Below, in pieces: positions 28,254 to 55,438 of a stretch of DNA of 64,000 bases; positions within the stretch are counted from its first letter, which is position 1, and each line of letters opens with the position of its first letter. The translations under genes were made by a program, and so were the position numbers. Below the pieces are notes generated by a model. The model was not told the origin of the DNA. It did not search any database and was given only the letters and a program-made list of their open reading frames with translations. The stretch spans positions 449,324 through 513,323 of the forward strand of contig CBDBPJ010000003.1 of NCBI GenBank assembly GCA_965208655.1, read 5' to 3'. This DNA comes from Gammaproteobacteria bacterium (GTDB lineage: Bacteria > Pseudomonadota > Gammaproteobacteria > Eutrophobiales > Eutrophobiaceae).

Positions 28254-29036
28254 TCAGTCCGTATCTGGCAACTGTTCCGGTTTCATTACCGGCGCCCGCC
28301 CCAATAACCCCGCCTTGCGCTTCTCCTTCAACCGGTAACTCTCACCCTTGATATTCAGGGTGGTGGCATGGTGCAGCAAACGGTCCAGGATCGCCGTGGC
28401 CAGCACCTGGTCACCGAAGATCTCGCCCCAGTCGATGAAGCTCTTGTTGGAGGTGAGGATGAGGCTGGCCTTCTCATAGCGGCGTTGGATGAGCCGGAAC
28501 AACAAACTGGCATCCTCCCGGGACAGGGGCAGGTAGCCCATTTCGTCGAGTATAAGGACTTTGGGGTAGACCCATTGCTGCAGTTGTTTCTCCAGGCGGT
28601 TCTCATCCCGGGCCCGTTTCAGTTTGCTGAGCAGGTTGTCCAGGGTCAGGAACAGGACCCGGTGCCCGGCTTCCACGGCTTTCACGCCCAGGGCGACGGC
28701 CAGGTGCGTCTTGCCCACTCCCGGCGGTCCCAGCAGGATGACGTTCTCGCCCCGTTCCACAAACGCCAGGCCCGCCAGGGTCTTGACCAGTTTGCGGTCC
28801 AGGCTCGGCTGGAACGTGAAGTCGAACTGTGCCAGGGTCTTCACCCAGGGCAGGCGCGCCTGCCGCAGTCGGCTGTCCACCCCGTTAACGTGGCGTCCCT
28901 GCCATTCGACCCGTAAGGCCTCGGTTAAAAAGGCCGGATAATCCCATTCCTGTTTGGCGGCCTGTTCACACACCGTCTCCAGTTGTGCCGGCAGGTGCTG
29001 GAACTTCAGCTTCGTCATTAATTGTGTCAGTTCCAT
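28254..29036 (-). CDS. istB: IS21 helper ATPase IstB
   Basis: Walker A GPPGVGKTH, Walker B LILDEMGY, IstB-type C-terminus. The start is taken at MELTQLMTKLKF (29036), overlapping the end of istA. Confidence 0.9.
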   Translation of the reverse strand: MELTQLMTKLKFQHLPAQLETVCEQAAKQEWDYPAFLTEALRVEWQGRHVNGVDSRLRQARLPWVKTLAQFDFTFQPSLDRKLVKTLAGLAFVERGENVILLGPPGVGKTHLAVALGVKAVEAGHRVLFLTLDNLLSKLKRARDENRLEKQLQQWVYPKVLILDEMGYLPLSREDASLLFRLIQRRYEKASLILTSNKSFIDWGEIFGDQVLATAILDRLLHHATTLNIKGESYRLKEKRKAGLLGRAPVMKPEQLPDTD

Positions 29037-30217
29037 TGTCCCGCCTCCTCGTACGCAGCCAACTCCCGTCGCTCTACCTGCAAGGCCTCCCGCCACAGCG
29101 CTGCATGATGGGCCGGGATACTCTGCCAACCGGCGCCGGCCGGGCGCAACCGGTGCTCGGCAATACACCGGTCCTGGCCGTCCACCACGCGTAAGCGGTC
29201 ATCCAGGCCGATGTGCACCGTCACCGGTTGACCACAGTACACTGCCGGCACACTGTAGCGGTTGCCGCGCACCTCGATATACCCGTCCCAGGCCACAAAC
29301 CGCTGTTCCCGGTAAGCCGTATCAAAACGCACCGTCGGTAAGGGGGATAACTGTCCACGCTCTGCCTCAAACCGGTCTATGACGCGCTGCCGATGCGTCC
29401 CGTGCATGCGTGGGTCCGCCTCGTCCCGTAACCAACTCTCCAACTGCTGGTTCAGATGCGCCAGGGTCTCAAACTGCCGGTAGCGCACAAAGAAGTGTTC
29501 CTTCACATAACGCACCATGCGTTCGGTCTTGCCCTTGGTGCGCGCCCGGTACGGCCGGCACGCCTTCGGCATAAATCCGTAATGCCCCGCCAGGTCCAGA
29601 AAACGCGGATGAAACTGCACGCCTTCCCCCACTCGATGCGCAATCACCGCCGACTTCTGGTTGTCCACCAGCACCGTCTTCGTTACACCGCCCAGGTACG
29701 CAAAACTGCGCACCAGACACTCATAGGTGTGCGCCGCATCCTGACTGACCGTGCCCCACACATGAAACCGGCGCGAATACCCCAGCGTGTTCACCGCAAT
29801 AAACACCTTCTGCTCAAGTCCGCCTATCGCCGTCCAGACTTCGCCCCAGTCATGCTGTAACTGCTCCCCTGGCCCAGTCTCAAAACGCACCGTCGCCCGG
29901 CTCGCACGCAACGGACGCTTGGGCCGGATATAGGCCCGGATCAAACTCACTTCACCCGGATAACCCTGTCCCTGCAACTCGCGCTGAATCACCATCGCAT
30001 TCCACACCCCCGCCTGCAACAACCGGTCTATCGCCGGCTTGTACGGGTCCAGAATACTGCCCCGGGCACGCGGCCGTTTCCCGGCCGGCGCACCGCCTCG
30101 CTTCAATGCCCGACTCACCGTCCTGGGGTGTACCCCCAGCTCCCCGGCAATGTCTTTGATATACACCCCGTCGTCGTGTTTGTGTTGTATCATCAGATAG
30201 TCTCCTCGCTTGAGCAT
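29027..30217 (-). CDS. istA: IS21 transposase IstA
   Basis: 396 aa. N-terminal HTH (IAGELGVHPRTVSRALKR) and a DDE integrase core (HDWGE...VLVDNQKSAV...RPYRARTKGKTER). Confidence 0.9.
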   Translation of the reverse strand: MLKRGDYLMIQHKHDDGVYIKDIAGELGVHPRTVSRALKRGGAPAGKRPRARGSILDPYKPAIDRLLQAGVWNAMVIQRELQGQGYPGEVSLIRAYIRPKRPLRASRATVRFETGPGEQLQHDWGEVWTAIGGLEQKVFIAVNTLGYSRRFHVWGTVSQDAAHTYECLVRSFAYLGGVTKTVLVDNQKSAVIAHRVGEGVQFHPRFLDLAGHYGFMPKACRPYRARTKGKTERMVRYVKEHFFVRYRQFETLAHLNQQLESWLRDEADPRMHGTHRQRVIDRFEAERGQLSPLPTVRFDTAYREQRFVAWDGYIEVRGNRYSVPAVYCGQPVTVHIGLDDRLRVVDGQDRCIAEHRLRPAGAGWQSIPAHHAALWREALQVERRELAAYEEAGQWN

Positions 30218-31152: not shown

Positions 31153-32283
31153 TCATGTAGGCCCTAAACGCCAATCTTCAAAATCGAGTAGATTGCGAAT
31201 ATAAAGTTCGTACTGCTCCTCATTGTCGCTACTTTGATCAATATGATTGCTTCCACCGAGTAGATTAAGAAATCTGTCCAACTCACCGGCACGAAGTACG
31301 GGAATTTTCAGTTTGTATCCCCATCGCAAGCGCGCCTCATTACAAGCCTCCCCTTTCCCGCGAATGGAAAGTGTTGTGGAGTGATCTTCACCTTCGATGG
31401 TGGAATAAAATTTCTGGACTGCGTAATTTATGCTGTCGGCCTTGTAGAAATAGAAAGATCCGGCTCCGAGAGGTCGCGTGTCTGGCGCTACCATTGATTT
31501 CTTGTAGTCGTCAAAACTGACATAACGAACCCGGGCCAATCTAGTCTGATGATATAAAATTTCGTAATATCCTGCATGATTGTTATCGGAGCGAATTTCG
31601 CCACGGGTCCATTCTTCATGGCGAGCTATATGCTCTTCTGCGTCAGTGACCCTCAGGGTAAATTCTGGGAACACGGAATGGTAGAAATTAGCGTTACTTC
31701 CGCTATCGTCGATTAAAAGCGACCACTCAGCAGGATGGCTCAAATACAGTTTTACCCTTTGTAAAGGCGACCTGTCCAAGCCAAAGCGTTCACGCCACAT
31801 CCGTTCAATATCGTGAGGTTGTGCAGTATCATTTATTGGGGTATTTGTGTCACAGACGCGAGTATAAATATGGTGAGGGCGAACTTCGTCATATTTTTCG
31901 ACAAGATAGTAGGGTTTATGCGGAGCATCTGTTATTACAAGAACGTCAAGTAAAATTCCGTTGAGGATGATTTCATTTAGATAAAATTCCGGGAATCTAC
32001 GCTGGAAAAATTTGTTGGCATTACTCCGAAACAAGCCAGCAAAATTTGTTTGGGTTCTTCGTCCGGCGTCTGTATTTATTGGATGTAGGGAAAAATTTTT
32101 GTCATCAACTCCAAATATCAAAAATCGATCACCAGCATGTTTGGAGTTAGCAAGACATAGAACATCATGAATGAGATCAGCTTTTCTTTTGTGATGCTCA
32201 CGTTTGAAGTCCCAATATGCTCCTTCAGCTCTTCGGTTGATCAAGCTAGAGATAGTGCTTAGTAGAGTATCTTGTACGACCAT
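31153..32283 (-). CDS. AlbA_2/Schlafen-like putative DNA-binding domain protein with an uncharacterised C-terminal domain
   Basis: 376 aa. The N-terminus (AEGAYWDFKREHH...IHDVLCLANSKHAGDRFLIFGVDD) matches the pattern of the divergent-AAA/AlbA_2 domain (E.K...ANT.GG.L.GV.D). AT-rich codon usage. Confidence 0.5.
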   Translation of the reverse strand: MVVQDTLLSTISSLINRRAEGAYWDFKREHHKRKADLIHDVLCLANSKHAGDRFLIFGVDDKNFSLHPINTDAGRRTQTNFAGLFRSNANKFFQRRFPEFYLNEIILNGILLDVLVITDAPHKPYYLVEKYDEVRPHHIYTRVCDTNTPINDTAQPHDIERMWRERFGLDRSPLQRVKLYLSHPAEWSLLIDDSGSNANFYHSVFPEFTLRVTDAEEHIARHEEWTRGEIRSDNNHAGYYEILYHQTRLARVRYVSFDDYKKSMVAPDTRPLGAGSFYFYKADSINYAVQKFYSTIEGEDHSTTLSIRGKGEACNEARLRWGYKLKIPVLRAGELDRFLNLLGGSNHIDQSSDNEEQYELYIRNLLDFEDWRLGPT

Positions 32284-33883: not shown

Positions 33884-34282
33884 ATGGATAGGTATACAGC
33901 CGAAAAAAGATCTTCTTTGATGTCTTTGGTAAAAGATAAGAATACGAAACTGGAGTTACTTGTCAGGTCAACGCTACACAAAAGCGGTCTACGTTTCAGA
34001 CTTCATCGTAAAGATCTTCCCGGCTCTCCGGATATCGTTTTGCCTAAACACAAAACCGTGATATTCGTGAATGGATGTTTCTGGCATGGCCACGACTGTC
34101 CCAAAGGACGTCGCCCTACCAGCAACCAAGAATTTTGGAATGAAAAGCTTGATAGAAATATGGCGCGCGATAAAGCGAATTATGTCCTACTACATAGATT
34201 GGGTTGGAGTGTGAAGATAATTTGGGAATGTGACTTACTCAATACCACAGCTAATATAATTGACAGCGTAAAATCCAGTTAA
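33884..34282 (+). CDS. vsr: Very short patch repair endonuclease
   Basis: 132 aa. Vsr hallmarks: RSSLMSLVKDKNTKLE, PGSPDIVLPKHKTVIFVNGCFWHGH, WSVKIIWECD. Confidence 0.9.
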   Translation: MDRYTAEKRSSLMSLVKDKNTKLELLVRSTLHKSGLRFRLHRKDLPGSPDIVLPKHKTVIFVNGCFWHGHDCPKGRRPTSNQEFWNEKLDRNMARDKANYVLLHRLGWSVKIIWECDLLNTTANIIDSVKSS

Positions 34283-34438: not shown

Positions 34439-35647
34439 ATGAAATCGGAAATACCAAATTGCATCATTTGCGACCAAGATAATTCGGTCCTGAGGTCCAC
34501 AGTTCTTCCTTCGGAAAATCCTTCCTGGCCTAAATTTAGAGTTGCCGACCTTTTTTCAGGTTGTGGTGGCCTGTCGTTGGGAATACAAATGGCGTCTAAC
34601 GCTCTAGGTTACTCCCTAGATGTCAGGCTTGCGTTGGATTCAGACCAAGTAGCAATGAACGTGTATCAAAACTTATTCCCGTCAGCGAGGACTTTTTGTG
34701 TTCCTATAGAAGACTTATTCGACGGAGAGATCGGCTCTCCGAATTCTGAAACAGAAAGTGAGGTCAAGCGGCTTGTCGGTCCACTAGATATTTTACTGGG
34801 TGGCCCGCCATGTCAGGGGCACTCGAATCTAAACAATTATTCAAGGCGTGATGATCCAAGAAATGGGTTATACATCCGGATAGCTAGGGCGGCCGAAGTA
34901 CTACATCCATCGGCTATTCTCGCTGAGAATGTCCCCACCGTAACTTATGATGTTCGCAAAACTGTCCATCAAACCATAGGGAGGCTCAGTGAGATTGGTT
35001 ATACAATCGGACAGGATGTTGTAGACCTGTCGAATTTAGGTGTGCCACAGAAGCGACGCAGGCATGTAATAATAGCGGTTCAAGAAGATTACGATATCGA
35101 TGTTCAGAGGGTACTTGAAAGGTTAAAATTACCCATATGCGATCACATCCCAAGAAATGTTCAATGGGCTATCAGTGATCTGGAAGATGTTATTAAACCG
35201 AACCTTTTCAACTCACCTTCTCAACCCTATCCGATCAACCAATCCCGGATCAACTGGTTATTTGACAATGACGAGAGCGATTTACCCAATGTTCTGAGGC
35301 CACGTTGCCACCGTTCTGACCACAGCTACACTGCCATGTATGGTAGGATGAAATGGGATCTTCCAGCCCAAACTGTGACTACTGGTTTTAATTGCATAGG
35401 GCAAGGTAGGTACATTCATCCTTCTCGCCGAAGAGTAATTACTCCCCACGAAGCCGCGAGGCTACAGATGATCCCGGATTTCGTAGATTTTAGCACCGTT
35501 ACGGCAAGGAAACACTTGGCGAAGCTTATAGGGAATTCTGTGCCACCGCCGCTGGCGTTCGTCACCGGTAAGTTGATGATCCCGCATTTGAGAGGAATGT
35601 CTCTGTCCAGCCAAACTATTCGGAATACTGGAAGAAGACCTAGTTAA
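34439..35647 (+). CDS. dcm: DNA (cytosine-5)-methyltransferase (system A)
   Basis: 402 aa. Motif I FSGCGGLSLG, motif IV GGPPCQGHS, motif VI ENV, motif VIII QKRRRHVIIA, motif X GNSVPPPLA. Confidence 0.9.
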   Translation: MKSEIPNCIICDQDNSVLRSTVLPSENPSWPKFRVADLFSGCGGLSLGIQMASNALGYSLDVRLALDSDQVAMNVYQNLFPSARTFCVPIEDLFDGEIGSPNSETESEVKRLVGPLDILLGGPPCQGHSNLNNYSRRDDPRNGLYIRIARAAEVLHPSAILAENVPTVTYDVRKTVHQTIGRLSEIGYTIGQDVVDLSNLGVPQKRRRHVIIAVQEDYDIDVQRVLERLKLPICDHIPRNVQWAISDLEDVIKPNLFNSPSQPYPINQSRINWLFDNDESDLPNVLRPRCHRSDHSYTAMYGRMKWDLPAQTVTTGFNCIGQGRYIHPSRRRVITPHEAARLQMIPDFVDFSTVTARKHLAKLIGNSVPPPLAFVTGKLMIPHLRGMSLSSQTIRNTGRRPS

Positions 35648-35652
35648 TTACA

Positions 35653-37881
35653 ATGCGAAACCTCAAACCGATCAAATTCACTGTTGCTTCAGAACTACTT
35701 AGAGAACTGGGTGAGCGGTTAGTCGGTCGTCAGTATATCGCTCTCGCCGAATTGGTCAAGAACAGCTTTGATGCCGACGCATCCAAAGTTGAGATTCGTA
35801 TCCAAAACGATTGGATTGAGATATCCGACAACGGTCACGGCATGTCCGAGTATGACTTTGCAAATCGTTGGATGCGCGTTGGTTCGACCCATAAGGTCAA
35901 GGAGAAGTTGTCGCCGGAGTTAAAGCGTCCGTTAACGGGTTCAAAAGGGGTAGGACGGTTAGCTGCTCAATTCCTTGCGCATGAATTAGAGCTGACTTCT
36001 GTCCCAAAAAAGTCGCGACTGAAAAATCAATCAGCGCTTTGTGAGTTATACGCGATGGTAGATTGGGACACGGCAGTCCAGGCTGGAGAATTAACTCATG
36101 CAGAGGCACTATACGAACTGGACCAATCTCCGAGCGCAGTTTTCCCTCTCGGAAATCAACATGGTACTACGATAACTCTGAGAGGTCTCAAACATAAATG
36201 GGCATCTGAAGAATTTGAAGCCTTGGCCAGAGAAATATGGTTCCTCCAGCCACCATTCCGCTCCTTGAGACGGGTTTCCAAGGTAGACTCCAGCGATTTT
36301 GAAGTTGACTTTTCATCAACAGATCCAAAGGCGGTTTCTTTGTTCAAAACCCAGATGTCCCGTATATTGGACCTCTATACATCCCGTCTTGTAGGAAAAC
36401 TTTCATCTGTTGATAAATCGCAGAAAAAGCGAAAAATACAATTATCACTAGAACTAGAAAGTCAATCCGCCACAGCCTACGAGTATCAAGTTCCTATTCA
36501 CGGTGATGGCATATGTTTAATCGACTCACTTGAATTTGAAATTCGTATTTTTACATTAAAGCGCCGGCAACCTTATGGGATACCAGTACAAGATGCGCGT
36601 GAATATATGGCCGATTGGGGAGGGGTGCATATTTACGATGCAGGATTTCGAATACCATATGCCGGACCAGACTCGGATTGGTTGAAGCTAGAGTTCGATC
36701 ACTCGCATCGCTTAACACAATCCCAACTTCTCCCGGACGAATTGAACGTTCCGATGGGATTGAATTACCTACCAACAAATTCACGTGTTCTCGGTATCGT
36801 AAACATTGATACATCACTTGAGGCGAGGGATTCGAATACAAAACAACCTCCTTCGAATCAATACTTGCAGATACAAGTATCCCGAGATCGTTTGGTTGAC
36901 AACGAAGCGTTCCGCCAACTTCGAGACATCGTCAGGTACGCTATTGATTATTACGCAACCCGCCTAGCAGTTCTACGGCTTCAAGAGAGGCAGGATCAAC
37001 GGGCTGTGGGAAGCCCTTTATCCCTAATTCAAAACGTATGGGATGTACTAGGTCAACATGAAGATGTAATTCCTCAGTCAGTAGCAAGCCAACTTAGGAC
37101 TGAATTAAACAGGACTATCGATTCCGTTCGCGAACAATCCGAATGGGCAAAAAGCCAATCTGGATTGCTCGGAGCAATGGCAACAGTCGGGGCGACGGCT
37201 ATTGCATTTGATCATCAATTCAACCAGCAACTCAATATTTTGGAATCCCACATTACTTCTCTAAATAACCTGATTAACACTACCGGAGATCTGAAGAAAT
37301 CGATTAGTGTCATTTCTGACCAAATTTATAAATGGATTCAAGACGCACGTGATACACGCACGATATTCTCACCAATTACCGACGAAAGAAACAGGACGAC
37401 AGTAAGCCGCTTTAAGGCTAGACCGTTAGTTGAGAGCTTGAGCAACAACCTGAGAACTTTTCTTCGAGGGGTAAATGTGGACCTATCGCGTATCGATAGT
37501 GATTTATTGCTACCCGAGACTAGCTACCCGGTATGGATGGCAATCTTCCACAACGTTTTTATGAATGCTTTCAATGCAATGCTGGATAGCGACGTTAAAC
37601 AGATAACGGTATCATCATTTAAAAGAGGCGATAGAAGAGGAATTCGAGTCCACGACACGGGAATAGGCATCGATCTAGACATGGCGGATGAATTATTTAA
37701 ACCCTTAGTACGAGACTTGGAGATTTCCTCAGAACGTCGGGCATTGGGGTATGGAGGTACAGGATTGGGTTTAGCTATTGTAAAAATGTTGGCCACAGAC
37801 TTGAAGGGGGACGTTCGCTTCATCACCCCGGAAGCGCCATTCAAAACATGCTTTGAAATAGCATGGAACGAGGAGCAATGA
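35653..37881 (+). CDS. Dual GHKL protein: N-terminal MORC/HATPase_c_3-like ATPase + central H-box-like segment + C-terminal histidine-kinase-type HATPase_c
   Basis: 742 aa. The N-terminal Bergerat fold has ELVKNSFDADA (aa 33-43), DNGHGM (59-64) and GSKGVGRLA (96-104). There is an H-box-like AFDHQFNQQL with the His at residue 521. The C-terminal kinase boxes are HNVFMNAFNAM (N), HDTGIGI (G1), LFKPL (F) and GGTGLGLAIV (G2). Confidence 0.7.
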   Translation: MRNLKPIKFTVASELLRELGERLVGRQYIALAELVKNSFDADASKVEIRIQNDWIEISDNGHGMSEYDFANRWMRVGSTHKVKEKLSPELKRPLTGSKGVGRLAAQFLAHELELTSVPKKSRLKNQSALCELYAMVDWDTAVQAGELTHAEALYELDQSPSAVFPLGNQHGTTITLRGLKHKWASEEFEALAREIWFLQPPFRSLRRVSKVDSSDFEVDFSSTDPKAVSLFKTQMSRILDLYTSRLVGKLSSVDKSQKKRKIQLSLELESQSATAYEYQVPIHGDGICLIDSLEFEIRIFTLKRRQPYGIPVQDAREYMADWGGVHIYDAGFRIPYAGPDSDWLKLEFDHSHRLTQSQLLPDELNVPMGLNYLPTNSRVLGIVNIDTSLEARDSNTKQPPSNQYLQIQVSRDRLVDNEAFRQLRDIVRYAIDYYATRLAVLRLQERQDQRAVGSPLSLIQNVWDVLGQHEDVIPQSVASQLRTELNRTIDSVREQSEWAKSQSGLLGAMATVGATAIAFDHQFNQQLNILESHITSLNNLINTTGDLKKSISVISDQIYKWIQDARDTRTIFSPITDERNRTTVSRFKARPLVESLSNNLRTFLRGVNVDLSRIDSDLLLPETSYPVWMAIFHNVFMNAFNAMLDSDVKQITVSSFKRGDRRGIRVHDTGIGIDLDMADELFKPLVRDLEISSERRALGYGGTGLGLAIVKMLATDLKGDVRFITPEAPFKTCFEIAWNEEQ

Positions 37882-37886
37882 AATCT

Positions 37887-39113
37887 ATGAAAATATTGGT
37901 TTATGAAGATCTGCCCGCAATCGCCAAAAATTGGTCTGATAAGATACGCTTGGCTTGTAGTGGGGCAGATGTAGTAACCGCGAAACGTGAGGACTTTTTG
38001 CGTTTGTTAAAACTATTAAATCATCGGAGAACTGAATGGAGAAATGGAAGGATAGAATTCTCTTCGACCGAAGTGCATGTTGTTGACAACACAGATGTAA
38101 TCATAATTGATTATGACTTATTTCAATATTCGGATGCTGCGGACACTACAGGTAGCAGGTTGGCTTATCTTCTCCGCTGTTTCACTGAATGTGGGATCAT
38201 TATTGTTCTCAACGAGTATGGGAATAATGTCTTCGATCTAAAACTTGCCAACCCTCCTGAGGGGTTCGCTGATTTAAATGTCGGTGGCGAACAGATTGGA
38301 AACCCTGGCCTTTGGCAAGTTCCCTTCAATGGTTTTCGACCGTGGTATTGGCCTAATATCTCTCACGCGAGGAAAAACTTTGAGATATGTGTCAAGGAGG
38401 TTCAGGACAACCTTGAAAAGCCGATTATTGAGTTCTTAGGTCTGGACCGTGTGATCGACTGGATGCCGCAGCGTGCGTGGGACTTTGTCTTGGGTAAACA
38501 GATCGTTGAAGAGATAACATTTAATGATTTTATTAAAGATACCCACGGTGGTATTGACGACAAAGATAAGCTCATCCCGAAGCAGATAGCACGAGTTGCA
38601 GCGGCAAGAATCGGTGCATTACTCAACTCGATAATCCTGCCGGATCAAAGCCTGCTCGTGGATGCACCACATTTGATTTCGCGGTTTCCCAGTCTAATAT
38701 CAGGTTCACGTGATGACATCGAAACATGGAATAAACTATGCAATCCTATCGAACAAAAAATAGATAATTTATTGATTGAACGATTGAAACAATATAGGTT
38801 CCAAAAATCGCATTGGCTTTGGAGACCAGCTTGGTATTGGCCCGAAATTAATAGAGATGAAGAAATCGAAGAAGTGAAAAGCCCTTGGACGACAGTGGAC
38901 ATCGACTGGGTGTTTTGCGAAGATATATCTCGATTCGTGCCTATTGAGGATGCTAAAGACTTCAGAGCACTCGTTTCTCCACCGTATATTAAGCGCTTTG
39001 TGTTAGATAGTAATTCACCAGGCGGGCTGAAATACGTTGCACAGATAAGCCAAGTCGGGGCACCGGACCCGTCTAAAGTGAATTATGTGCCTCAAGCGGC
39101 GTTTGGCTTGTAG
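37887..39113 (+). CDS. Receiver (REC)-like N-domain protein with an uncharacterised about 290-aa C-terminal region containing two PWYWP motifs
   Basis: MKILVYEDL (beta1 acidic pair), DVIIIDYDL (beta3 Asp) and IIIVLNEYG (beta4) resemble CheY-like receivers. The start is chosen at the ATG 11 nt after AGGAG; alternative in-frame ATGs are at 37863 and 37878 (ATGA overlap with the upstream stop). Confidence 0.5.
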   Translation: MKILVYEDLPAIAKNWSDKIRLACSGADVVTAKREDFLRLLKLLNHRRTEWRNGRIEFSSTEVHVVDNTDVIIIDYDLFQYSDAADTTGSRLAYLLRCFTECGIIIVLNEYGNNVFDLKLANPPEGFADLNVGGEQIGNPGLWQVPFNGFRPWYWPNISHARKNFEICVKEVQDNLEKPIIEFLGLDRVIDWMPQRAWDFVLGKQIVEEITFNDFIKDTHGGIDDKDKLIPKQIARVAAARIGALLNSIILPDQSLLVDAPHLISRFPSLISGSRDDIETWNKLCNPIEQKIDNLLIERLKQYRFQKSHWLWRPAWYWPEINRDEEIEEVKSPWTTVDIDWVFCEDISRFVPIEDAKDFRALVSPPYIKRFVLDSNSPGGLKYVAQISQVGAPDPSKVNYVPQAAFGL

Positions 39114-39121
39114 AATCCGAC

Positions 39122-39766
39122 ATGCCCATTGAACCGGCAAATATTGCCGCTCGAATCGCCACATTTGATATCCTGTCCAGATTTTTACATGTGAGTCAAT
39201 GGAATTACAAAGATTTTACCCCGCTCCATGAAAAAACTTATAAGGAATATCACGAATTAGCGTTGCCGGTAGATATTATGCAACTTAAAAGAAATTTCGA
39301 TAATAACAAAGAAGTCGACATGATGGAGAGGAACATGTTTCTGTATCTTGAACCTACAAAGAGCAAGAGCATCTTGCCCCTCGTAACAATCCAGAGTTCT
39401 AATAAGTGGTGTCATTTCAGAATCTATGCGTTACTCACTATGCTCGACAGAGATTCGAACCTTCAATCACTGGCCATAAGATATGAGACCGACGAAGGAG
39501 ACGGTCAAATTGGGAGTGCAACTGGAGCACATGACTTTTGCCATGCACAGTTATGTAGATATATAACTGGTAAAGTTCCAGCCTCAACCCCTGCTTGGCT
39601 ACCAGAATCGCAACCTTCATTCCCACTAGATGCCGAAGATCAAATTGGTCTTGTAGTTTGCATGCTAACGTCGATTTACGGCGGCGCCCACGTACTTCGA
39701 AAATTAAGTGCCAGCGGAGACCGGGATCTTCGAAAGCACATGCGAAAAGTACGAGCATTGCGGTAA
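39122..39766 (+). CDS. Hypothetical protein, last gene of system A
   Basis: 214 aa, 8 nt after the upstream stop, same AT-rich codon usage. No motif is recognised with confidence (contains GAHDFCHAQLC and a C-terminal RDLRKH). Confidence 0.45.
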   Translation: MPIEPANIAARIATFDILSRFLHVSQWNYKDFTPLHEKTYKEYHELALPVDIMQLKRNFDNNKEVDMMERNMFLYLEPTKSKSILPLVTIQSSNKWCHFRIYALLTMLDRDSNLQSLAIRYETDEGDGQIGSATGAHDFCHAQLCRYITGKVPASTPAWLPESQPSFPLDAEDQIGLVVCMLTSIYGGAHVLRKLSASGDRDLRKHMRKVRALR

Positions 39767-54262: not shown

Positions 54263-55438
54263 ATGCAATTCGTACCTTTTTCATACGCCCACTCCACCGA
54301 CCTTAAGGTCGATGCTGTCTATCAAGGAGGCCGCCTGGGAAATGCTGGAGATGACCCCTTGCCTCACCTTCTTAACGTCAGCAATTCAGGAGGATTCAGA
54401 TATCGGGGTCAAGTGCACAAATTGGAACTGGTGGTTCTGACGTCTTCAGGCAAAGATCCAGACTGGCCGGACCTGCTTGAACGCGAGACCGGTATTTACA
54501 CTTACTTCGGAGACAATAAAAGACCTGGTCGAGGACTGCACGAAACCCCCAGAAAGGGGAACGAGCTTCTCCGGCGGATTTTTGATTTGGCTCATTCAGG
54601 CATTGAAGGACGTCGGCAGGTACCCCCTATATTGTTGTTCGCGAATACAGGGGAATGGAGAGATGTTGTATTTCTTGGACTTGCTGTTCCTGGCACAGCC
54701 GACCTCCGTGCATCAGAAGACCTTGTTGCCATTTGGAGAATTGCCAAAGGAAGTCGATTTCAGAACTATCGCGCCCGTTTCACAGTTCTCGATGTGTCAT
54801 TTATATCACGAGCCTGGATTGCTGATATCATCGCCGGCAATCCTCACTCTTCCAACGCACCTGAGGCGTGGTCAGCCTGGGTTCAAACCGGCCGTCCGCG
54901 CTCGCTGCTCGCCGCCAGATCATTGGAATACAGAACCAAAGGCGAGCAAATTCCAGATAACTCAATTGATCGTTCCATCTTGGAAAGAATTCACGAATAT
55001 TTCGAAAATGATTCTCACGGTTTCGAACGCTGTGCTGCTGAGCTTGCAAAACTGCTCCTCCCTGATATTGCAGAAATCGATTTGACCAGGCCTTCTCGTG
55101 ATGGGGGCCGCGATGCAATTGGTAAACTGCGTATCGGAAGCGGGGCATCCGGGATTTTGGTTGACTTTGCGCTTGAAGCCAAATGCTACGCTCTTTCCAG
55201 CGGCGTAGGTGTAAAAGGCATGTCCCGGTTGATCTCCCGGCTGCGTCACAGGCAGTTTGGCATACTGGTTACAACTAGCTATGTAAATGTTCAGGTTTAT
55301 CGTGAGATCAAAGAGGATCAGCATCCCATTATCGTTATCTCTGGTGCAGATATCGTGGCGCTATTACGAGCTGATGGCTACGCTCATCCAGAATCCGTCA
55401 GAACGTGGCTGAAGCAAAACTTTGTCCTCAATGAGTGA
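54263..55438 (+). CDS. Candidate modification-dependent restriction endonuclease: SRA/YDG-like N-domain + Mrr-cat-type PD-(D/E)XK C-domain
   Basis: 391 aa. VVLTSSGKDPDWPD...GIYTYFGDNKRPG..LHETPRKGNELL parallels the SRA pattern (SGGY.DD.D.G....YTG.GG....Q.L..GN.AL). The C-terminal part, SRDGGRDAIG...LVDFALEAKCY, supplies D...E.K. Confidence 0.5.
   Translation: MQFVPFSYAHSTDLKVDAVYQGGRLGNAGDDPLPHLLNVSNSGGFRYRGQVHKLELVVLTSSGKDPDWPDLLERETGIYTYFGDNKRPGRGLHETPRKGNELLRRIFDLAHSGIEGRRQVPPILLFANTGEWRDVVFLGLAVPGTADLRASEDLVAIWRIAKGSRFQNYRARFTVLDVSFISRAWIADIIAGNPHSSNAPEAWSAWVQTGRPRSLLAARSLEYRTKGEQIPDNSIDRSILERIHEYFENDSHGFERCAAELAKLLLPDIAEIDLTRPSRDGGRDAIGKLRIGSGASGILVDFALEAKCYALSSGVGVKGMSRLISRLRHRQFGILVTTSYVNVQVYREIKEDQHPIIVISGADIVALLRADGYAHPESVRTWLKQNFVLNE

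Follow-up and report, generated by a model that had tools for sequence, protein, structure and literature searches.

A five-gene cassette centred on a dual-GHKL protein

The 64,000-nucleotide stretch analysed here, hereafter the window (Gammaproteobacteria bacterium, family Eutrophobiaceae; assembly GCA_965208655.1, contig CBDBPJ010000003.1, forward-strand positions 449,324 to 513,323), carries a cassette of five co-directional, tightly packed genes, in the order Vsr, C5-methylase, kinase, receiver protein and a small protein of 214 amino acids (aa). The third gene (35653-37881, + strand) is an uninterrupted open reading frame (ORF) that begins with ATG and encodes a 742-aa protein, which ORF, domain, motif and structure evidence identify as a dual-GHKL sensor kinase of the AbrB-like or HEF_HK type. 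Upstream lie the genes for a 132-aa Vsr very-short-patch repair endonuclease (33884-34282, +; Pfam Vsr, E 4e-31; NCBIfam vsr, E 6e-43), accessory to the C5 methylase, and for a 402-aa C5 cytosine DNA methyltransferase (34439-35647, +; Pfam DNA_methylase, E 1.5e-46; PADLOC MTase_II/DruM), the modification or 'self-marking' component. Downstream lie the genes for a 408-aa receiver-domain protein (37887-39113, +), recognized from its AlphaFold2 (AF2) model and Foldseek searches, and for the 214-aa protein (39122-39766, +), a candidate effector subunit that takes the operon slot held by the HNH nuclease AbrD in the Ambrosia defence system. The sequence GAGGAG lies 11 nucleotides upstream of the receiver ATG at 37887, within the end of the kinase gene; were translation to begin at the upstream ATG, 37863, the receiver protein would have 416 aa.

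The cassette block has a G+C content of 44-45% compared to 52-58% in its flanks, and we therefore read it as a horizontally acquired block. No conserved regulator or extra flanking gene was found around the cassette, no XRE/C-protein gene lies alongside it, and none of its proteins matched an HNH or helix-turn-helix (HTH) family. A promoter and terminator scan returned nothing beyond the expectation from shuffled sequence, and a search for an integration site revealed no tRNA in the window.

Domain architecture of the 742-aa protein

Domain searches placed two distinct GHKL ATPase folds in the 742-aa protein, HATPase_c_3 at residues 29-130 (E 2.4e-23, 83 bits) and HATPase_c at residues 631-737 (E 1.7e-20, 74 bits), both far above the curated Pfam cut-offs of 25 and 26.4 bits. 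The N-terminal domain (residues 9-195; 35677-36237, +) is further defined by similarity to the BbrUII/HgiDII model and to the N-termini of MutL and PMS2, which were the sole non-kinase sequence matches of the protein in the PDB; the PADLOC REase_II model also matches this N-terminus. Its motif residues are E33, N37, D59-x-G61-x-G63 and G96-S-K98-G99-x-G101. In a close set of 60 homologues and a diverse set of 81 homologues with 23-45% identity to the window kinase, E33, N37, D59, G61, G63, G96, K98, G99 and G101 were invariant, and S97 was conserved in at least 90% of the diverse set. With every catalytic residue preserved, the N-terminal third is a GHKL ATPase of the MutL/MORC/HgiDII type.

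Assignment of the whole protein to the BbrUII/HgiDII restriction enzyme family was considered and rejected. The corresponding NCBIfam model, NF050001, aligned only through the GHKL domain (profile positions 3-183 of 659, E 3.4e-26), and its score of 92 bits falls far below the 550-bit cut-off, indicating that only the domain subtype is common to both.

The C-terminal third of the protein is a complete class-I (HisKA-type) histidine-kinase core, consisting of a dimerization and histidine phosphotransfer (DHp) hairpin followed by a catalytic and ATP-binding (CA) domain. The CA domain (residues 589-739; 37417-37869, +) carries the N, G1, F and G2 boxes as N634, N638, D668-x-G670-x-G672, F682-x-P684 and G701-G702-x-G704-x-G706-L707. 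Residues N634, N638, D668, G670, G672, G704, G706 and L707 were invariant in both the close and the diverse homologues, and F682, P684 and G702 were conserved in at least 90% of the diverse set; single-sequence PDB hits of this domain include AdeS (E 1.4e-7). The DHp-like region (residues 475-582; 37075-37398, +) contains the H-box segment AFDHQFNQQLNILESH (37204-37251), in which His521 (codon 37213-37215) lies 117 residues before the Mg-binding Asn638 and is invariant in all 60 close and all 81 diverse homologues.

Structural comparison agreed with this assignment. The AF2 model, built from a 60-sequence alignment, predicts helices at residues 418-449, 457-468 and 475-512, a hairpin formed by 514-543 and 547-576, and an alpha/beta domain at 589-739. 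In a Foldseek search of the PDB with this model, 50 of the 50 top hits were DHp plus CA cores aligned over roughly 240-260 columns, with YF1/FixL the best (4gcz, E 4e-10) and HK853, CpxA, ZraS and CusS also present. A profile of the 81 diverse relatives likewise matched histidine kinases in the PDB over DHp and CA, down to E 2.5e-19, among them FixL, CpxA, HK853 and EnvZ. In these alignments the family sequence 'aleHE' falls onto 'ALAHELNQPL' of FixL/YF1 and 'MSHEIRTPL' of 7z8n, which places His521 on the phospho-accepting His. The original prediction for this gene, made from the sequence letters, had called for two Bergerat (GHKL) folds, all four kinase boxes and a DHp-like segment with His521, next to a receiver-like protein; the domain scores and invariant motifs, the intact boxes, the predicted hairpin spanning 514-576 with its alignment onto the FixL phospho-His and, as described below, the neighbour's receiver matches and invariant Asp bear these claims out. 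We regard the domain identities of the 742-aa protein as near certain.

The two ATPase-type folds are separated by a conserved middle region (residues 196-474; 36238-37074, +), modelled by AF2 with low to medium confidence. Domain scans and profile searches of the PDB gave no Pfam or PDB match for this region. It shares motifs with AbrB, the dual-GHKL protein of Ambrosia: GGVHIYDAGFRIPYAG and DWLxLEFDH in the window kinase match GVRIYRDHFRVKPYG..DWLGL in AbrB. Sequence matches to MutL end at about residue 85, the listed Foldseek hits cover the kinase core only, and the beta/alpha elements that AF2 places at 217-322 are of modest confidence. Motif residues within the region include D329, D342, E347 and H350-x-H352. 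The middle region may house a transducer or a module that binds substrate, together with linker helices.

Distribution of the architecture

Searches of a large protein database recovered more than 1700 relatives of the full-length protein. The best 120 of these are nearly all full-length (94-100% coverage, 60-79% identity) and share its pair of Pfam domains. When 1.8 billion cluster representatives were searched with a profile, 945 clusters (50% identity) scored E <= 1e-30, about 100 of them full-length. With relatives in such numbers, the fusion of two GHKL domains is neither a chance finding nor a single case. In a scan of one genome per species, at least 576 relatives were found across many bacterial phyla and archaea, and nearly all of the best 80 span the whole protein. 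Full-length copies of the kinase borne by phages were not found.

At several loci the kinase gene is split into 2-4 ORFs (L057:7986-10325, L042:8010-11506, L034, L041, L065 and L083), with an interruption of about 1.3 kb in L042. Gene decay, insertion or an error of assembly may lie behind these splits.

The receiver protein and the 214-aa protein

The AF2 model of the 408-aa protein (mean predicted local distance difference test score (pLDDT) 87.8, predicted template modelling score 0.90) begins with a predicted (beta-alpha)5 receiver fold. The receiver (REC) domain occupies residues 1-145 (37887-38321, +) and contains an invariant Asp, Asp75 (codon 38109-38111). Top Foldseek hits in the PDB and BFVD were receiver domains only, aligned over about 135-150 residues with probabilities of 0.97-1.0 and target TM-scores of up to 0.64. 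The acidic pair E7-D8 is present together with D75; neither D8 nor D75 varies among 72 homologues, and both are conserved at 41 diverse loci. Receivers of the window's clade (loci L007-L065) strictly keep the three acidic residues and have a second Asp or Asn two positions after the acceptor, as D-Y-D-L or D-N-N-L.

The C-terminal domain of this protein, of about 260 aa, has invariant D259, H262, H309 and E345. No family match was found for it in the window protein or the 72 homologues, a profile search of the PDB was empty, and among the listed Foldseek hits no solved structure outranked the receiver-domain matches. HTH and winged-helix families were absent from the 408-aa protein and from the 72 homologues.

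The 214-aa protein has conserved E122, E125, H137, D138, H141, Q143 and C145, forming the motif E122/E125 ... H137-D138-x-x-H141-x-Q143. The single sequence matched no Pfam, NCBIfam or PADLOC model, Pfam searches with all 77 homologues gave none, and comparison with the PDB yielded only noise, both with a profile of the 77 homologues and separately with a profile of the sister-clade family. Weak hits to APOBEC3 and DUF4423 were rejected as chance.

Relationship to published systems

Comparison with the literature revealed that the dual-GHKL kinase architecture, which the original prediction had called unusual, is present in hundreds of species and had been published in 2008 (PMC2441816), in 2021 (PMC8011034) and in 2025 as AbrB of Ambrosia. 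The first published note of it concerns R.EcoUTORF4938P, a putative restriction enzyme in REBASE with an N-terminal GHKL domain and a C-terminal histidine-kinase domain bearing conserved N, D, F and G motifs (Orlowski & Bujnicki 2008, PMC2441816); the middle part was left unassigned there, and we liken this protein to the window kinase by its description only. The window kinase thus belongs to a widespread, laterally mobile family that is already in print and has an experimentally validated cousin.

A computational study described HATPase_c_3 plus a 'HEF_HK' H-box plus HATPase_c as 'group 1' proteins with an adjacent response-regulator-like gene, a C5 methylase upstream and Vsr nearby, and proposed a cytoplasmic two-component system tied to restriction-modification (R-M) (Bellieny-Rabelo et al. 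2021, PMC8011034). The window cassette has the architecture and the neighbourhood of this pair, with the C5 methylase upstream, the response-regulator-like gene downstream and Vsr nearby, and the interpretation offered in that study is the same as that of the original prediction. The two descriptions differ in that a conserved receiver Lys was reported (PMC8011034), whereas the window's clade has no such Lys. The Pfam model HEF_HK (PF19191) gave no hit to the window kinase even at E <= 10 and is absent from the Pfam lists of 120 homologues; it matched a 24%-identical relative at the equivalent position, 515-569, with a sub-cut-off E of 0.0079. Response_reg_2 (PF19192) matched 0 of 72 and 0 of 37 receiver proteins, with the presence of this model in the Pfam copy searched being unconfirmed.

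The experimentally validated relative is Ambrosia, an anti-phage system of P. aeruginosa composed of the XRE regulator AbrR, the N6-adenine methylase AbrA, and AbrB, AbrC and AbrD (bioRxiv 10.1101/2025.09.30.679545). Each of three mutations abolished defence: N40A at the GHKL Asn in the N-terminal domain of AbrB, D60A at the receiver Asp of AbrC, and substitution of the HNH His in AbrD (10.1101/2025.09.30.679545). Like the window kinase, AbrB (747 aa) has HATPase_c_3 followed by HATPase_c, and its gene is flanked by those of a DNA methylase and a receiver-domain protein. In BLASTP comparison with the published N-terminal 399 residues of AbrB, residues 9-346 of the window kinase were 29% identical (E 4e-29), a span that includes the middle-region motifs, and the AbrB fragment matched 93 ORFs across the sampled loci, dual-GHKL genes among them. 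The partners are different. Ambrosia has an N6-adenine methylase, a 209-aa receiver protein (AbrC), an HNH nuclease (AbrD) and an XRE regulator. In the window the methylase is of the C5 class and is joined by Vsr, the receiver protein runs to 408 aa and ends in an unrelated domain, the 214-aa protein is not of the HNH type, and an XRE gene is missing; neither AbrC nor AbrD showed similarity to the profiles of the window's families.

The N-terminal domain also links the window kinase to the paraMORC GHKL ATPases, which occur in laterally mobile R-M operons together with cytosine methylases and Vsr (Iyer, Abhiman & Aravind 2008, PMC2292703). Like the paraMORC and HgiDII/BbrUII proteins, the window kinase has an N-terminal domain of the HATPase_c_3 subtype with intact ATPase motifs and an operon link to methylase and Vsr; in contrast, the five described paraMORC families have neither a kinase core nor a receiver partner (PMC2292703).

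With the canonical HisKA kinases FixL/YF1, HK853, CpxA and EnvZ, the window kinase shares the DHp plus CA core and the equivalent His, and its receiver gene lies directly downstream. It differs from them in being soluble and in having a MutL/MORC-type ATPase and a 280-residue region before DHp, with no PAS, HAMP or transmembrane sensor. Relative to canonical HisKA and CheY-like proteins, the window pair also departs at catalytic positions, with Gln following the phospho-accepting His (H+1), Asn in place of the receiver Thr/Ser, and no receiver Lys. The window kinase belongs to a branch with different partners and with departures at catalytic positions.

No window protein matched the PADLOC models of two-component defence systems, Detocs included, at E <= 0.1. 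Detocs is reportedly a three-gene defence system (Millman 2022 / Rousset 2023) built around a histidine-kinase-like sensor and receiver proteins; phosphotransfer is believed to switch on an effector domain that is fused to the receiver and resembles a nucleoside phosphorylase. It is said to have neither a methylase nor an N-terminal MutL-type ATPase.

Three operon types share the dual-GHKL gene

To place the window cassette among its relatives, 80 species-level loci, together with plasmid loci, were searched in six frames with profiles of each cassette protein. Three operon types have the dual-GHKL gene in common across the species-level loci.

Type C, the clade of the window, comprises 38 loci from species-level genomes of bacteria and archaea. 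The receiver family of the window was found at all 38, the family of the 214-aa protein at 34, and, counted as present within 8 kb, a C5 methylase at 32 and Vsr at 25; the position of Vsr varies among these loci. Among all the loci sampled, complete cassettes or kinase genes were seen in the archaeal assemblies L025, L028, L046 and L051 (Nitrososphaerales, an archaeal single-amplified genome, an uncultured archaeon and Halostagnicola), indicating that the system crosses the domain boundary.

Type B, the sister clade, comprises about 35 loci whose kinases are 23-27% identical to that of the window. These loci have an NPPY-type methylase, no C5 methylase and no Vsr, with a receiver protein of about 360 aa and a third protein of about 235 aa; the NPPY-type motif was present in upstream ORFs at 21 of 25. 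Throughout this clade (loci L043-L089, and for example L008:4256-9888) the kinase/receiver chassis goes with amino-methylases of the NPPY type; C5 methylase and Vsr never accompany it. The type B receiver profile matches canonical response regulators in the PDB (E 6e-8), and its N-terminus aligns with the window receiver family (hhalign probability 93%, E 3e-7). In the ~235-aa protein we find H-x-D ... H-P-x-x-H-x-Q-x-G-G, a motif whose resemblance to the window's small protein is only local. Comparison of the small-protein families of the two clades (39122-39766 against type B) gave an hhalign probability of 10%, with H-x3-H-x-Q ... P-x-x-P-x-x-P-x-D lining up and an acidic cluster before it. 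The common motif could be a shared metal site, which we treat as a lead and not as homology. At two sister-clade loci an HNH protein occupies the third-protein slot, and at L008 a small HTH regulator lies upstream, as in Ambrosia.

Type A, the true Ambrosia operon, is represented in the sample by L073 and L087 only, which have an AbrC-like receiver and an AbrD-like (HNH) third protein. The full set of AbrA, AbrC and AbrD was recovered by phmmer among the sampled loci at L073, and at L087 without an AbrA hit, at a contig end; elsewhere AbrA or AbrC gave isolated hits at a handful of loci, the window not among them.

More distant relatives, on plasmids of Bacillus, Clavibacter and Agrobacterium, retain the dual-GHKL architecture, and at least the Clavibacter gene is followed by a receiver-like gene. 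These distant plasmid hits were considered as HgiDII-like bridges to the receiver C-terminal domain and rejected, being further dual-GHKL proteins instead. The flanks of the Chloroflexota loci L003, L004 and L005 contain a ThsB-like TIR gene, an Eco57I-type methylase with a PLD-helicase gene, and IS110 transposases, a defence-island context.

In sum, comparison of the three operon types indicates that the kinase and receiver pair is the constant core around which the methylase class and the output proteins vary. The genes for the kinase, receiver and third protein are inherited together, a triad conserved over the 80 species-level loci and plasmids, with C5 methylase adjoining here and amino-methylases in sister clades.

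Proposed mechanism and alternatives

We propose that the 742-aa protein is the sensor-kinase subunit of a mobile, R-M-linked 'two-component-like' defence cassette, a mechanism that, taken as a whole, we consider somewhat favoured. The kinase would dimerize through its DHp bundle. The N-terminal ATPase and the middle region would sense a trigger, either foreign or unmodified DNA or an infection cue, and this would shift the register of the long helices (418-512) running into DHp. The CA domain would then phosphorylate His521, and the phosphoryl group would pass to Asp75 of the receiver protein. Phosphorylation of the receiver would switch on its C-terminal domain, probably together with the 214-aa partner, as an effector; by analogy to the HNH protein in the same slot of Ambrosia, this effector pair would most likely be a nuclease. 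The C5 methylase would mark self DNA, and Vsr would repair damage from deamination of 5-methylcytosine (5mC). Of these steps, transfer from His521 to Asp75 is likely but unproven; the least secure are the effector assignment and DNA sensing.

Several observations weigh against this mechanism. An acidic residue at H+1 serves as the general base for autophosphorylation in HisKA kinases, and of the 81 diverse relatives 75 have Glu and 3 have Asp there; the residue is Gln522 (37216-37218) in the window and Gln in all 60 close homologues. In the same 60, the Lys/Arg at H+4 is replaced by Gln525 (37225-37227), so that the family H-box consensus E-H-E-x-x-K-Q has become D-H-Q-F-N-Q-Q. Because of the Gln at H+1, kinase activity of the window's subclade should not be assumed. 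The AF2 model of the kinase is of medium confidence (mean pLDDT 70.8) and falls below 50 at residues 513-519, directly before the His. On the receiver side, the canonical Thr/Ser of beta-4 is replaced by Asn109, which is nearly universal in the window's clade, and no Lys follows beta-5 ('FADLNVGG') across that clade; sister-clade receivers retain Ser and a Lys. Our literature search found no paper reporting phosphorylation assays for this kinase family, and the Ambrosia study mutated the N-terminal ATPase of AbrB and not its H-box (10.1101/2025.09.30.679545). At the sensing end, the S5 transducer domain that is the hallmark of MORC and paraMORC proteins was not demonstrable after the GHKL domain by sequence or Foldseek searches, and sensing of DNA by the N-terminal module is pure inference. 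At the output end, the receiver C-terminal domain and the 214-aa protein match no family or solved structure among the searches made, and their putative effector role is assigned by analogy, from operon position only. The double-Gln change of the H-box was also seen at the Latescibacterota and Dehalococcoidia loci L010 and L031.

The claim in the original prediction that the protein clamps and senses DNA found no direct support in this analysis. Its further suggestion, that DNA sensing is transduced into phosphorylation of the adjacent receiver, fared better in one part: given the Gln at H+1 and the receiver positions lacking Thr/Ser and Lys, phosphorylation at His521 and transfer to the receiver are plausible and not established.

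A more specific version of our proposal is restriction gated by a phosphorelay, in which the MutL/MORC-like ATPase would read whether DNA is methylated, unmethylated or invading, and His-to-Asp transfer would post-translationally activate a novel effector formed by the 260-residue domain and the 214-aa H-x3-H-x-Q protein. In this detailed form we consider it rather unlikely. If it were true, the swap between C5 methylases and amino-methylases would represent one signalling chassis re-targeted to different epigenetic marks.

Alternatively, the pair could act by transcriptional control, inducing restriction-like genes on infection, with the receiver protein a DNA-binding transcription factor and not an effector. 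This is the control favoured by the authors of the Ambrosia study, in which cluster reporters were induced on infection and AbrC was presented as REC with a winged helix (10.1101/2025.09.30.679545). For the window, however, we consider it unlikely. AbrC is not detectably similar to the 408-aa protein, which, like its 72 homologues, has no HTH or winged-helix family; its residues D259, H262, H309 and E345 resemble an active site more than a head that reads DNA; and the cassette has no XRE/C-protein gene alongside and no recognizable nuclease left to regulate.

A second alternative is that the DHp-CA core and the receiver form a pseudo-two-component scaffold, kept for ATP-driven dimerization and docking within an ATP-dependent restriction enzyme of several subunits, with no phosphotransfer, at least in the window's subclade. 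The same departures that weaken our proposal, Gln at H+1 and H+4 in 60 of 60 close homologues and a receiver without the canonical Thr/Ser and Lys, count in favour of such a scaffold, and REBASE-derived resources class relatives as putative restriction subunits (PADLOC REase_II, NCBIfam BbrUII/HgiDII, and R.EcoUTORF4938P in PMC2441816). Nevertheless, His521, the ATP-binding residues of CA and the receiver acidic triad are invariant over large evolutionary distances, which is hard to reconcile with a scaffold without catalysis, and the receiver Asp is essential in Ambrosia (10.1101/2025.09.30.679545). We judge a purely structural role to be quite unlikely.

Finally, it is very unlikely that the 742-aa protein is itself the restriction endonuclease, with a nuclease hidden in residues 196-420 and kinase and receiver parts that only tune it: its N-terminal subtype is that of the characterized HgiDII/BbrUII enzymes, its middle region has conserved acidic and His residues, an HxH nuclease site has been proposed for paraMORC5 (Iyer et al. 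2008, PMC2292703) and the C-terminal part of R.HgiDII is likewise suspected, but no nuclease family or fold was detected by Pfam, Foldseek or profile searches of the PDB, H352 is not conserved beyond the close subclade (the diverse consensus is IExDHxxRL, with H350 and H352 both below 90%), and conservation of the two genes downstream is as strict as that of the kinase, which argues for locating the output in them and not in the kinase. The three alternatives are not strictly exclusive of one another.

Two-component-like signalling in restriction and defence cassettes has been recognized only recently, with Ambrosia as one validated example whose mechanism may be transcriptional control or direct activation of an effector. 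The branch linked to C5 methylase and Vsr is widespread in bacteria and archaea, has no recognizable nuclease and carries natural variants at catalytic positions, and these last two features make it a good test case for whether the kinase chemistry is used and for the identities of the partners.

Genomic surroundings

The region of the window from 29 to 56 kb, in which the cassette lies, is a defence island. At 54263-55438 (+) it encodes an AspBHI-like methyl-directed (Type IV-like) restriction enzyme with RE_AspBHI_N and Mrr_cat domains (PADLOC mREase_II, E 6e-160). The presence of a 5mC-dependent enzyme beside two C5-methylase systems makes the compatibility of target sites an issue. On the other side of the cassette, at 31153-32283 (-) and 29027-30217 (-), are a PDC-S50 candidate defence protein with a Schlafen/AlbA_2 domain (PADLOC E 5.5e-79) and an adjoining Mu-type/rve transposase. 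The Mu-type/rve transposase of the window lies in a patch of 60% G+C.

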